NCBI GenBank assembly: GCA_025352125.1
Contig: JANXTZ010000045.1
Coordinates: forward strand, 783-64,782
DNA: 64,000 nucleotides
Source of the DNA: Deinococcales bacterium
GTDB lineage: Bacteria; Deinococcota; Deinococci; Deinococcales; JAAFIG01
Direction: 5' to 3'
Shown here: piece by piece, positions 1 through 64,000 of the stretch
Layout: the number at the start of each line of letters is the position of its first letter
Position numbering within the stretch: the stretch's first letter is position 1
Made by a program: the position numbers and the translations under genes
Notes under the pieces: generated by a model
What the model was told of the DNA's origin: nothing
Seen by the model: only the letters and a program-made list of their open reading frames with translations
Databases searched by the model: none

Positions 1-67
1 TCGTAAATACAATTTCTAGAAGTTTCCAATTCATCGACAATCATAAAACGTGTGATACACTGCTTCT

Positions 68-292
68 ATGCACAAAAAACTATTTTTAATCACTCTTGTT
101 GGGTTAGCGGCATGTAACAATCCTGGTGGCTCAAGCAATTTGCCATAACCATTAGAACTGCATGGAGCAATTCAAAACTGGCCTGCTGGAAAAACTGGAA
201 AATTGCGTTTGAGGTGGATTCAACTGTTAACAGGCAGTGGTTCTTGTGGAGAGGTGATAACTGAACCCATTATCACTACCGGTAGTGGGTGA
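68..292 (+). pseudogene. Small lipoprotein-like ORF interrupted by an in-frame TAA at codon 27
   Basis: ATG at 68 encodes MHKKLFLITLVGLAAC, a signal peptide plus lipobox Cys. TAA at 146-148, then the same frame stays open for 47 more codons to TGA at 290-292. AT-rich, no CTCGAG. Confidence 0.3.
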
Positions 293-384
293 ACTCGAAT
301 GCTAAAGATTGTTTAAATTTGTTCCAGACGCAAATTCTTGAGATGAACATTCTCAGATACACCACTACCGCAAATTCTCGAGCA

Positions 385-417
385 ACAAAAAAAGGGCGCA
401 CCGTAAACGGTGCGCCC
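385..417 (-). terminator. Rho-independent terminator of rpoC
   Basis: Perfect 10-bp stem gggcgcaccg (394-403) / cggtgcgccc (408-417), loop taaa. On the minus strand it is followed by a T7 run (387-393), 20 nt downstream of the rpoC stop. Confidence 0.85.
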
Positions 418-437
418 TCTCTCTAACTCTTTAAACC

Positions 438-3400
438 TCAATCCCCTGCGGGTTGTTGTTGGTTCGCAATCAACCTTGCACGCTCACCTCGAGCGTCACC
501 CTCGAGCACGCGCTCTTTCAAGCGTTCGTCCACAATTTGGGTGTCTTTGACAAAGTCCAAGCCTGTGCCTGCTGGAATCAACTTGCCGAGGATCACGTTT
601 TCTTTCAGACCGATCAGGTCGTCCACCTTGCCAGCAATGCTGGCTTCGGTCAGAACGTGCGTGGTGTGTTGGAAGCTCGCGGCGGAGAGCCATGATTTGG
701 TGCTCAGGGCGCTCTTGGTGATGCCCATGAGTTTTGGCTTCCATGAGGCTGGGGTCTTGCCGAGCGCCTCGATGCGTTCGCCCTCGCGTTCGACATCGAA
801 CCTGTCCATGATTTGTCCCTCGAGATAATCGCTGTCGTTGCCTTCAGTGATTTCGACGTATTTGAACATTTGACGGACAATGACTTCGATGTGCTTGTCG
901 TGAACTTTCACGCCTTGGGCGCGGTAAACCTGTTGGATGCCTTCGACCAGGTAGCGCTGTGCAGCTTCTGGACCCTTACTCTCGAGCAAGTCCTCTGGGT
1001 TGATCGCGCCGCGTGTCAGCGGTTGACCGGCAACCACGCGCTCGCCCTCTTTGACGATCATGCGGAAGCTGCGGTCAGCTTTGTACTTCTTGGAGAATTC
1101 GCCCTCGCTCACGGTCAGGGTGATCTTGTCGTTGTCTTCCTCTTCAATGTGCAGCACGCCGTCGAGGTCGGATAGAATCGCTTTGGTTTTTGGCTTTCGC
1201 GCCTCAAACAACTCCACAACTCGAGGCAAACCGAGCGTGATGTCTTGAGCGCCCGCCACACCGCCAGTGTGGAAGGTGCGCATGGTGAGTTGTGTGCCTG
1301 GTTCACCGATGGATTGCGCGGCAATCACGCCGACGGTTTCGCCCTTACTCACCATCTTGGCTTGTGAAAGGTCGTGACCGTAGCACTTCTGGCAAACGCC
1401 GCTCGGGGTGCGGCAGGTCAGCGGCGAGCGCACGGCAATGTCGTGGATGTCGTTGCGAACCTTCAAAATCGCACGCATTTCGTCCAGACCTATCGCAGTG
1501 TCAGCCTCGAGCTTCAAGCCTGAGACGTTGACCTCTTGCGCCAGCACACGACCGTACAGCGCACTCTCGAGGTCGCTGACCTTGCGGGTCTTGCCTTCTT
1601 CTTTGAAGTAGACGTTCAGGTAATCGCTGGTTCCACAATCGGTTTGGCGGATCACGACCTCGTGGGCGACGTCGTGCAATTTACGGGTCAGATAACCGGA
1701 GTCTGCGGTGCGAAGCGCCGTGTCCGCGCCACCCTTTCGGGCGCCGTGGGTGCTGATGAAATACTCGAGCACGTTCAGACCCTCGCGGAAATTGGCTTTG
1801 ATCGGAATTTCGATCACGTCACCGTTTGGTTTTTGCATCAAACCGCGCATTCCCATCAATTGACGAAGTTGCTGTTTGTTGCCTCGAGCGCCCGAGGTGC
1901 TCATGATGTAGAAGGGGTTGAGCGGGAAGTTGTTCTCGAAGTTCTCGTAGGCGGCATCGGTCACACGTTCGGTGATGTCGGTCCAGAGTTTGGTGACTTG
2001 CAGGTAACGTTCGCGGTCGGTGGTCATGCCGAAGGCGAAATCTTCTTGAATCTTGGAGAGTTCCACGTCGGCTTCGGCGAGCAGGCTGGCTTTTTGCTCT
2101 GGGATCATCGCGTCGTCAATGCCCACGGTCACGCCGGTGGTGCTGGCGAGTTTGAAACCAGAGTCTTTGAGTGCATCGAGCAGTTTGGCGGTTTTCTCGA
2201 GTCCGAGGTATCGAAACACGTCCATGACCAGATCACGCAGAGCATCTTTTGCGTATGGCACGTTCAAATTCACGAATTCGCGGTTTAACACCGTGCCGTC
2301 TTCGGTTAGGGTTTCGGTGATGATTCGGTGAAAGTACGCCCGACCTGGGGTGGTCTCGAGGGTTTTGACGCCCACTGCCGTTGGAATCCGAATCGTCACG
2401 ATGTCCTGCATGTCAATCGTGCCATTGGAGACGGCTTGGAATGCCTCGTCAGGATTGGAGAAATGATATTTTAGCGCACCCGCGAAGGTGTCGCGTCCGT
2501 CCACCACTATTTTTGCATTGTGGTCAATTTTCTTGTCCGCAAAGGCTTTCAGGGCATCTTGCGGGGTCTTGAATTTGCTGCCCGCACCGTGTTTCGAGAC
2601 TCGAGGCAGGGTCAGGGTGTAAATGCCCAAAATGATGTCCTTGGCGGGTTTGACGTTCGGTTCGCCGCTGGCAGGGGAGAGCAAATTGTGCGATGCCAGC
2701 ATTTGAATGCGGGCTTCGGCTTGGGCAAATGCCGAGAGTGGGACGTGAATTGCCATCTGGTCGCCGTCAAAATCGGCATTGAAAGCCTCGCAGACCAGTG
2801 GGTGCAATTGAATCGCTTGACCTTCGACCAAGACTGGCGTGAAAGCCTGAATGCCCAGACGGTGAAGCGTCGGTGCACGGTTCAGCAAGACAACCTTGTC
2901 TTGAATGACCTCTTCGAGTGCATCCCAAATTTCGTCCCGCGTGTCGCGGTAACGCTCGAGCAACTTGCGGGCTTGTTTGATGTTGGTGACAACACCCTTT
3001 TCCTCGAGCACTTTGAACAAGAACGGTTTGAACAACTCGAGCGCCATGCGTTTTGGCACACCGCACTGATGCAGTTTGAGCTGAGGTCCGACCACGATGA
3101 CGGAACGACCCGAGTAATCGACGCGCTTGCCCAGAAGGTTCTGACGGAAGCGACCTTGCTTGCCGCCGAGCAAATCGGTAAGCGAACGCAGCGCACGGTC
3201 TGAACCTGGGTGCGTGACGGGCGTACCGCGACGACCATTGTCGATCAGGGCATCCACAGCCTCTTGCAACATGCGCTTTTCGTTCCTGATAATCATTTCT
3301 GGCGCACCAGTGGTCATCAGCTTCTTCAAACGGTTGTTGCGGTTAATCAGACGACGGTAAAGGTCGTTCAAATCCGAGGTCGCAAAACGTCCACCCTCGA

Positions 3401-63342: not shown

Positions 63343-63403
63343 GAATCCACCTCGAAATGGTTATTGATGCTCGAGATTTTGCTCGAGATATTTAGTCTCT
63401 CAA

Positions 63404-63432
63404 AGCATAAGACTTGAGTGTGGTATTGTCAA
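63404..63432 (-). promoter_or_regulatory. clpB promoter with an overlapping HAIR-like inverted repeat
   Basis: Minus strand reads TTGACA-17 nt-TATGCT. The spacer and -10 region carries cACTCAAGtcttatgCTTTGAGag (63397-63420). Confidence 0.5.
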
Positions 63433-63491
63433 ATTTCTCGAGTGCTGAGAAAATACAAGTTGTTGAATACATTGTCCAAGCATAAGCGGTT

Positions 63492-63974
63492 ATGCTGAGT
63501 TTTATGTCAGACCTGACCCACTTTAAAGACGGACGCCCCCACATGGTGGACGTTTCCGAAAAATTGGCTAGCAAACGTGAAGCCACCGCCGAAGCGATCA
63601 TCAAACTGCCACTCGAGGCACGAACAGCCCTGGACCGAGGCGGCGTCGGAAAAGGCGATCCGCTCCTTGTCGCGCAACTTGCAGGCATCATGGGTGCAAA
63701 AAAAACCAGCGACCTGATTCCGCTGTGCCACCCAATCCCACTCTCGAGCGTGGATGTGAACATCGAGCGAACTGAACTTGGTGTTCGTGTGACCGCCACA
63801 GCCCGAACCACCAACCAGACAGGGGTTGAAATGGAGGCACTGACCGCCGTGAGTGTTGCCGCATTAACCGTTTACGATATGTTGAAAGCTGTCAGCAAGG
63901 GCATCGAAATCTCGAGCATCAGATTGCTTTCAAAAATGGGTGGAAAGTCTGGGGATTGGGTCGCGCAAGATTGA
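63492..63974 (+). CDS. moaC: Cyclic pyranopterin monophosphate synthase MoaC
   Basis: HMVDVSEK, the KGD motif and [12 protein letters not shown]. The start may be the ATG at 63504. Confidence 0.9.
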
Positions 63975-64000
63975 AGCTCAATCTGGGTGCGGCGTTATAC

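Follow-up and report, generated by a model that had tools for sequence, protein, structure and literature searches.

CTCGAG is a palindromic DNA word actively kept at extreme abundance in an uncultured Deinococcota clade

The window and its CTCGAG sites

We analysed a 64,000 bp stretch of DNA (51.9% G+C; hereafter the window) from a Deinococcales bacterium (assembly GCA_025352125.1, contig JANXTZ010000045.1), in which the palindromic hexamer CTCGAG occurs at extreme density. The rpoB and rpoC genes place the window in Deinococcota, outside named genera, with rpoC 69% identical to that of Deinobacterium chartae and 67% to that of Deinococcus. A sequence identical to the window is present in two independent SRA assemblies. 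By exact count there are 422 sites (6.6/kb, ~1 per 150 bases), against about 420 estimated by hand in an earlier reading of the letters alone, the original prediction. The genes and the spacer on which the argument draws are these, the related strain being the one compared with the window below:

438..5009, minus strand: rpoC, 24 sites, 18 of them in-frame Leu-Glu
5179..8571, minus strand: rpoB, 12 sites
8572..8916, no strand: divergent promoter spacer, 4 sites in 345 bp
8917..10887, plus strand: KAP-family NTPase gene, 36% GC, 2 sites, 1.0/kb
21198..22087, minus strand: rpsG and rpsL, free of CTCGAG both here and in the related strain
23284..23637, minus strand: HU gene, no CTCGAG in either strain
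30962..34141, plus strand: lacZ (GH2 beta-galactosidase), 27 sites, 8.5/kb

The figures given beforehand for individual genes (8.5/kb in lacZ, about 24 sites in rpoC, 12 in rpoB and 2 in the KAP gene) were reproduced exactly, as were the stretches described as empty. The first CTCGAG lies at 377, none having been claimed in 1-375, and the first 797 bp of fusA, whose 5' end was said to be site-free, contain none. Neither rpsG nor rpsL has a site; rpsL is counted as zero because the site at 22120 sits upstream of its true MPTVQQL start. Across 62 or 17 genes, CTCGAG density showed no significant correlation with gene GC, G+C at third codon positions or protein conservation, and the low counts in the rps genes, HU and fusA are therefore anecdotal.

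Dinucleotide-preserving shuffles of the window yield 13.5 ± 3.8 CTCGAG, with a maximum of 23, so that the observed 422 represents a 31x excess. CTCGAG is the most frequent hexamer of the window, the next dozen or so all overlap it, and the next independent hexamer reaches about 83 copies. Its one-off variants had been described as much rarer, and all 18 of them occur only 0-35 times each. A high-order Markov model had been proposed as a check, and the naive maximal-order estimate does come to 331. We reject this figure as circular, since CTCGAG itself contains 86% of the CTCGA and of the TCGAG pentamers (422/491 and 422/493). When the sites are masked, first- to third-order models expect only 8-15 copies per 64 kb, and the observed number is 28-50x higher.

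The sites divide into 370 in coding DNA (6.4/kb) and 52 in intergenic DNA (8.1/kb), 88% thus lying within the 62 genes called by our codon model. Shuffling synonymous codons within each gene, which keeps both protein and codon usage, leaves 56 ± 7 CTCGAG (maximum 75) in place of the 370 observed, and shuffling codon order leaves 24 ± 5. Both remain far from the hundreds that the original prediction had named as the outcome speaking against it. By reading frame, the genic sites are distributed as follows:

CTC-GAG (Leu-Glu) frame: 246 sites observed, 46.5 expected by synonymous shuffle
xCT-CGA-Gxx frame: 47 sites observed, 3.8 expected by synonymous shuffle
xxC-TCG-AGx frame: 77 sites observed, 5.6 expected by synonymous shuffle

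Each frame is enriched 5-14x over the synonymous shuffle, and the out-of-frame phases 12-14x. The statement that the motif is not tied to one frame holds insofar as every frame is enriched; the frames are nevertheless unequal, with a strong Leu-Glu skew, and two thirds of genic sites are in-frame CTC-GAG. The examples cited for it from lacZ (Tyr-Ser-Ser at 31057, Ala-Arg-Ala at 31074 and Leu-Glu at 31133) were confirmed by translation.

This pressure is visible in the proteins themselves. Leu-Glu is written CTC-GAG in 246 of 322 dipeptides (76%, where about 6-12% is expected); outside Leu-Glu pairs, CTC accounts for 16% of Leu codons and GAG for 36% of Glu codons. The same two codons in reverse order, GAGCTC (the SacI site), have 0 copies in the window despite 158 Glu-Leu dipeptides. 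Leu-Glu is the most over-represented dipeptide at 2.31x, followed by Ser-Ser (TCG-AGy) at 1.65x, which bears out the proposal that the motif shapes codon and dipeptide usage. In lacZ, 20 of 24 Leu-Glu are CTC-GAG and the dipeptide is 3.7x over expectation. Conserved genes are close to saturation (rpoC 18/21, rpoB 10/11, clpB 13/15), and their lower density follows from having few Leu-Glu rather than from avoidance of the site. More than half of the in-frame rpoC sites differ from the dipeptide found in Deinococcus and Marinithermus (among them I-A, V-D, L-A, L-D, Y-E and I-E), which means that amino-acid replacements in RNA polymerase β′ have become fixed under this pressure. Both the Leu-Glu excess and the replacements are restricted to the CTCGAG clade described below. 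The KAP gene acts as an internal negative control, with CTC-GAG in just 1 of 10 Leu-Glu. This gene, which encodes a KAP-family P-loop NTPase, was rejected by the codon model, its region is missing from the rpoB flank of the related strain, and it is probably a recent acquisition.

The excess is larger still in intergenic DNA (6.4 kb, 44.7% GC), where 52 CTCGAG stand against 1.2 expected, a 45-fold enrichment. It is alike across divergent, convergent and tandem spacers; the divergent spacers taken together hold 14 sites against 0.4 expected. A minority of the sites form terminator-like hairpins with a CTCGAG pair at the stem base, in five spacers (four convergent, one tandem). All five hairpins that had been placed at 17911, 18773, 23238, 28319 and 45231 were recovered:

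17910..17946, no strand: terminator-like hairpin between convergent genes, two CTCGAG as stem base, AAAG/CTTT flanks
18773..18808, no strand: hairpin formed by paired CTCGAG, repeats the 17910 element in reverse complement (perfect inverted repeat of 25 nt)
23237..23269, no strand: hairpin between convergent genes, 14-bp stem around two CTCGAG
28319..28352, no strand: hairpin downstream of greA, 15-bp stem around two CTCGAG
45233..45258, no strand: hairpin between convergent galK and a GNAT gene, CTCGAG at 45234 and 45252

We found no flank consensus around CTCGAG, with or without orienting the sites by gene and frame, and the most widespread extension to 8 bases accounts for 14% of sites. None of the 8-mer extensions is more frequent than independent flanks would predict, the palindrome GCTCGAGC with its 44 copies included. 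A second 8-mer palindrome, CCTCGAGG, has just 3 copies where independent flank frequencies predict about 13. Spacing is near Poisson (coefficient of variation 0.96 vs 0.99 ± 0.05 for random placement), and the sole departure from randomness is a deficit of close pairs, with 1 pair less than 12 bp apart against 16.7 expected. No helical (10-12 bp) or regular periodicity of CTCGAG was detected in the window. We also considered and rejected a longer motif or repeat element: there is no shared flank, and the apparent repeat families are chance short matches anchored on the hexamer. Repetitive extragenic palindromes and miniature inverted-repeat transposable elements share a consensus beyond the core and have mostly intergenic copies, neither of which applies to CTCGAG.

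Conservation and distribution among relatives

For comparison we used a related strain with about 87-91% DNA identity to the window, represented by three loci (L083, L166 and L167) from JGI metagenome 3300081913, a sample from a freshwater NEON site (bioRxiv 10.1101/2025.08.28.672922). CTCGAG is again the top hexamer, at 5.9-6.5 sites/kb over the three loci (63 kb). Over 34.7 kb aligned at 87% identity, and with phase-matched hexamers as controls, 176 of 210 CTCGAG (84%) are intact in the related strain compared to 48% of controls (frame 0 p = 2e-18). Noncoding sites behave likewise (27/31, 87%, vs 42% of controls; p = 2e-7). In the RNA polymerase genes, 22 of 24 rpoC sites are common to the 91%-identical strain and 6 to a lineage 79% identical in protein, and all 12 rpoB sites are kept in the related strain. 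Over rpoB and rpoC together, 9 of 36 sites are found at orthologous positions in the lineage 79% identical in rpoC.

Sites are both gained and lost, with 34 present in the window only and 37 in the related strain only, and the two strains are therefore at a turnover equilibrium. Single-base differences fall at C1/G6 (15), C3/G4 (15) and T2/A5 (8) and are mainly transitions, no base being specially protected. The rate of site loss is 0.16-0.24 of neutral, a slowing of about 4-6-fold. Under a simple fixation-bias model this would correspond to a scaled advantage, S, of about 2.4-3 for each site, from which an 11-20-fold excess is predicted where 24-45-fold is observed; such a value would explain conservation and excess together to within 2-3-fold. 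A further feature of turnover hints that some CTCGAG sites appear or vanish by clustered changes. Among 46 strain-specific sites with conserved flanks, 8 differ at three or more of the six bases where about 3.2 are expected (p about 0.02), including those at window positions 3003, 17257, 28573 and 59623 (window vs L083/L166/L167). Once local divergence is matched, this excess is just marginal.

The trait extends well beyond the two strains. In three lineages at 77-79% rpoC identity CTCGAG is also the top hexamer, at 3.5, 5.2 and 5.1 sites/kb and 47-60% GC. It thus ranks first in 7 clade loci, which represent four lineages of one clade spanning 47-60% GC. Enrichment over the synonymous shuffle, the share of Leu-Glu written CTC-GAG and the frequency of Leu-Glu itself follow the phylogeny:

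Clade (window lineage and the three lineages at 77-79%): observed/shuffle 4-10, 44-78% of Leu-Glu as CTC-GAG, Leu-Glu 1.6-2.5x
Lineage at 72% rpoC identity: observed/shuffle 7.7 (1.1 sites/kb), 23% of Leu-Glu as CTC-GAG, Leu-Glu 1.5x
Trueperaceae, Thermaceae and Deinococcus: observed/shuffle 0.8-1.9, 18-54% of Leu-Glu as CTC-GAG (roughly the codon-usage expectation), Leu-Glu about 1

The original prediction had asked whether the window might be atypical. With 5.9-6.5 sites/kb in the related strain and 3.5-5.2/kb in the three farther lineages it is not, and the abundance of CTCGAG is a trait inherited within a single uncultured clade of Deinococcota. As a negative control, 80 unrelated lacZ loci (1.07 Mb of metagenome) have a median of 0.26 sites/kb; with a best match 47% identical, these loci were unsuitable as close relatives. 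Foreign-looking genes are poor in sites, as seen for a 23%-GC gene of the related strain (0 sites) and for the KAP gene (1.0/kb). Genes below 45% GC average 3.9 sites/kb vs 6.0/kb in the remaining genes. A triplet scan of viral contigs was also considered. Among the contigs listed, the richest in CTCGAG have 58-71% GC and up to 43 copies of GAGCTC, and we attribute their richness to codon usage and scan selection because high GC and GAGCTC co-occur. No phage of the CTCGAG clade was identified among the viral contigs listed. GAGCTC itself is absent from all clade loci except L288 (4 copies) and from the weakly enriched L085, and is frequent in Deinococcus (18) and Thermaceae (30).

Taken together, the full six-base word is subject to a directional force exerted on double-stranded DNA, in all frames and in noncoding sequence. 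Its presence throughout the clade marks this force as old; it does not depend on base composition, it is still at work, and it is slow compared with gene acquisition. It prevails over synonymous-codon preferences and over a fair number of preferences for particular amino acids (Leu-Glu, Ser-Ser), and translation-level and compositional explanations of CTCGAG are excluded. A DNA-level force on the full hexamer, with HIP1 and uptake sequences as nearest analogues, had been proposed at the outset, and the 45-fold intergenic excess and the conservation of sites support it.

Known systems and candidate explanations

The closest known systems are HIP1 (GCGATCGC) and the alternate highly iterated palindromes (HIPs) of cyanobacteria (GGCGCC/GrCGyC, Calothrix PCC 7103) (PMC4390886; PMC5861425). 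Like these, CTCGAG is a G+C-rich palindrome and the top over-represented word of its length. Its observed/expected ratio is in the tens (28-50x across the non-codon controls), within the tens to hundreds typical of HIPs, and it occurs in noncoding DNA and in every frame of coding DNA, to an extent that codon usage does not explain. It is conserved among relatives above background and is lineage-wide, and hexameric HIPs exist. There are also clear differences. The host belongs to Deinococcota rather than cyanobacteria, and the word is the XhoI site. CTCGAG reaches 6,600 per Mb vs 300-2,700 per Mb for HIP1 and lacks quasi-periodic spacing; its one-off variants are spread over six positions, whereas those of HIP1 are concentrated at the ends. 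Its proteome is measurably remodelled, and a cognate methyltransferase was not found in the window and about 100 kb of clade loci. In phenomenology CTCGAG is a HIP: most of the HIP properties that could be assessed are present, the exceptions being periodicity, lineage and, so far, the methylase.

A second set of analogues is formed by the DNA uptake sequences (DUS) of Neisseria and the uptake signal sequences (USS) of Pasteurellaceae, for which uptake bias has been demonstrated and, in the case of DUS, the receptor is known. These too are short words built up genome-wide in competent lineages, which molecular drive can explain, and they share with CTCGAG the use of tolerated frames, a peptide bias, inverted pairs as terminators and scarcity in foreign DNA. 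DUS and USS are, however, oriented, non-palindromic 9-12-mers at about 1 per kb, while CTCGAG is a 6-bp palindrome at 6.6 per kb with no flank consensus.

Repair offers a third precedent: Bhagwat and McClelland, and Merkl et al., both in 1992, reportedly showed that very-short-patch (VSP) repair shapes CCWGG-related words in E. coli, by less than 2-fold. There, as might be the case here, a methylase-linked repair pathway alters oligonucleotide abundance genome-wide. That effect is specific for deamination products; CTCGAG is about 30-fold in excess and its deamination products are not depleted. Restriction-site avoidance likewise moves Type II palindromes off expectation, and GGCC, CCGG, GAGCTC and many further words are avoided in this genome too, but CTCGAG is opposite in sign and far greater in magnitude. 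Over-representation of restriction sites is rare, about 1.4-1.5x for CCGG in Helicobacter (Rusinov et al. 2015, PMC4687349). In the literature we found no prior report of CTCGAG hyper-abundance in any genome.

Three explanations remain, namely an uptake- or recombination-linked drive, a ratchet of mismatch repair guided by methylation, and organism-level selection for a binding-site array. We favour the first over the others, with a probability of roughly 0.45. According to this proposal, a clade-conserved protein would read the symmetric CTCGAG, probably once it has been methylated by a cognate methyltransferase, and DNA bearing the site would gain an advantage in natural transformation or homologous recombination. 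Sites could then build up by molecular drive wherever proteins tolerate them, a route put forward for uptake sequences and, more recently, for methylated HIP1. The terminator hairpins would be a secondary use, since any two copies of a palindrome can pair.

Our preference has three grounds. Firstly, Deinococcota are competent, Deinococcus and Thermus being naturally so, and one CTCGAG-rich lineage of the clade encodes pilB-like (T2SSE), pilC-like (T2SSF), comEA and comEC genes directly downstream of rpoC (L288, 14782-20154). Secondly, the anatomy fits uptake sequences in its tolerated frames, peptide bias, terminator pairs and scarcity in foreign DNA. Thirdly, methylated HIP1 is reported to raise transformation up to 100-fold, and HIP1 abundance to track DNA-uptake and type IV secretion genes (bioRxiv 10.1101/2024.09.10.611283, 10.64898/2026.06.24.733823).

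A more specific version, in which CTCGAG would be a methylated palindromic self-tag read by the clade's transformation or recombination machinery, we hold only tentatively and with the odds against it. If true, Deinococcota and cyanobacteria would have arrived independently at the same way of labelling kin DNA, by means of a methylated palindrome present in very high numbers. It would also be the first signal for sequence-specific uptake or recombination to be recognised in Deinococcota, and powerful enough to have altered RNA polymerase along with hundreds of further proteins. In a more radical variant, a dedicated short-patch conversion activity would write the hexamer into the genome, as the weakly elevated number of clustered multi-base changes hints.

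Several points weigh against a drive of this kind. Among the genes of the 64-kb window we found none for a DNA methyltransferase, a restriction endonuclease or Vsr, using Pfam searches of all genes from 21 kb on, precomputed Pfam results for 7.5-21 kb, and scans for the motifs [DNS]PP[YFW] and PCxx[FYW]S. One DUF559 protein aside, the same enzyme classes are missing from the annotated flanks of related loci (about 100 kb); window and flanks together come to about 170 kb of clade DNA, a few percent of a genome. We know of no sequence-specific DNA uptake in Deinococcota. A 6-mer is a poor discriminator, the density is about 6x that of DUS or USS, and the sites are spaced randomly rather than evenly. 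The agent itself, whether methylation, uptake or recombination, we infer by analogy.

Biased repair is the strongest of the rivals, though we consider it somewhat unlikely. Here a methylation-linked mismatch-repair or VSP-like pathway would turn near-cognate sequences into CTCGAG, as a mutational by-product without function, much as in Elhai's ratchet model for HIPs, in which methylation-linked repair is biased towards the motif (PMC4390886). In its favour, the enrichment extends to all frames and to noncoding DNA, one-off variants are at about background with the full site 25x higher, gains and losses are balanced, and clustered multi-base differences are slightly more frequent than expected where sites were gained or lost. 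In one CTCGAG-rich clade member, moreover, a gene for a 118-aa DUF559 protein (Vsr-like endonuclease fold) lies directly upstream of rpoB (L289, 5728-6084); no homologue of it was found in the other clade DNA examined. What speaks against repair is that no hexamer position is specially protected, that known repair-driven word biases are below 2-fold, and that no methyltransferase or Vsr was found in the window or the related loci examined. Correction of deaminated 5-methylcytosine of the VSP type is unsupported because the T-variants are the commonest near-misses rather than depleted (TTCGAG 35, CTTGAG 33, CTCGAA 26, CTCAAG 19). TTCGAG/CTCGAA and CTTGAG/CTCAAG are likewise the commonest differences between strains, the opposite of what VSP repair would leave.

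Alternatively, organism-level selection could maintain CTCGAG as a binding-site array for an abundant dimeric DNA-binding protein with a nucleoid-associated, repair-related or segregation-related role. The palindromic form of the word suits a dimer, one site per 150 bp resembles nucleoid-protein occupancy, conservation is above background even in noncoding DNA, and the trait is clade-wide and GC-independent. We regard this explanation as unlikely: helical or longer periodicity, even spacing and a flanking consensus are all lacking, the fitness effect per site should be tiny yet S is about 3, and no candidate protein was found.

It is improbable that the abundance is a by-product of restriction-modification, with a long-resident XhoI-type system or an orphan methylase and methylated sites favoured for regulation or protection. 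CTCGAG is a classical Type II target, the genome bears the marks of strong restriction pressure (GGCC 5 vs 300 expected; 19 six-base palindromes missing), and 5-methylcytosine methylases of CTCGAG exist in Halorubrum (PMC8112702). Restriction targets are normally avoided, however, we know of no mechanism through which a system of this type would make sites, and no restriction-modification genes were seen in the window.

A compositional, codon-pair or translational artefact, that is, a bias for the codons CTC and GAG or for the Leu-Glu dipeptide, might seem to be suggested by the in-frame majority of genic sites, by the Markov figure of 331 and by high-GC viral contigs that, among those listed, reach 5-7 sites/kb via codon usage alone. 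Codon usage and dicodon preference are nonetheless refuted by the shuffles (56 or 24 vs 370), the 12-14x out-of-frame and 45x intergenic enrichment, the lack of GAGCTC despite 158 Glu-Leu and the different spelling of Leu-Glu in the foreign KAP gene, and with the Markov figure circular we consider such an artefact highly improbable. A small mobile or repetitive-palindrome-like element carrying CTCGAG is refuted for the bulk of sites and has a negligible chance, for while the two hairpins at 17910 and 18773 share a single 25-nt element, there is no consensus past the hexamer, 88% of sites are genic and the repeat families are chance matches.

Independently of its cause, the phenomenon has several consequences. 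HIP1 has been unexplained for 30 years, partly because it represents a single phylogenetic event. A second, independent HIP-like case in another phylum, with a different word and at 2.5-20 times the density, would allow hypotheses to be tested comparatively: is a cognate methylase always present, does the motif track competence genes, and does methylated motif DNA transform better? A natural gradient of about 1, 3.5, 5 and 6.6 sites/kb exists within one clade. The case also illustrates how strong a pressure at the level of DNA can be: it can exchange amino acids in RNA polymerase and make one dipeptide twice as frequent proteome-wide. In practical terms, XhoI-type enzymes would cut DNA of this clade to fragments of about 150 bp unless it is modified, and binning and annotation tools based on codon pairs or k-mers will be biased for it.

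Avoided palindromes and minor features

Other palindromes are avoided in the window. GGCC occurs 5 times against 300 expected and CCGG 56 times against 193, and 19 of the 64 six-base palindromes are missing, for example CTGCAG, GGATCC, CAGCTG, CGATCG, CCGCGG and GCATGC. Palindrome avoidance is also seen in L083, L166, L167 and L289. Avoidance of GGCC is lineage-specific, with 0-1 copies in the window lineage and L289, 24 in L288 and 88 each in L084 and L085. L085, which represents the sister lineage with weak enrichment, has a restriction-modification pair resembling Type III at 420-4982 (a ResIII helicase/endonuclease and an N6_N4 methyltransferase), about 1.5 kb upstream of rpoB with one gene between.

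Two segments of the window resemble toxin-antitoxin cassettes. The 25-nt perfect inverted repeat noted above (17923-17947 / 18771-18795) flanks an 823-bp segment with a small open reading frame and a HigB-family toxin gene, which looks like a cassette with a single terminator-like element copied at both ends. A 53-nt direct repeat, 96% identical (39430-39482 / 40144-40196), is a duplicated 3' end of a purine/uridine phosphorylase gene. The 714-bp segment between its copies holds a HigB-like toxin gene (39833-40114) and looks like a second cassette insertion, with a duplicated target.

Three short tandem arrays were also observed. A 28-bp unit is repeated 3.6 times at 47958-48057, in the spacer upstream of an enolase-superfamily gene, a 14-bp unit is repeated 3.8 times at 46113-46166, and a 21-bp in-frame unit occurs three times within a zinc-ribbon gene at 49957-50019.

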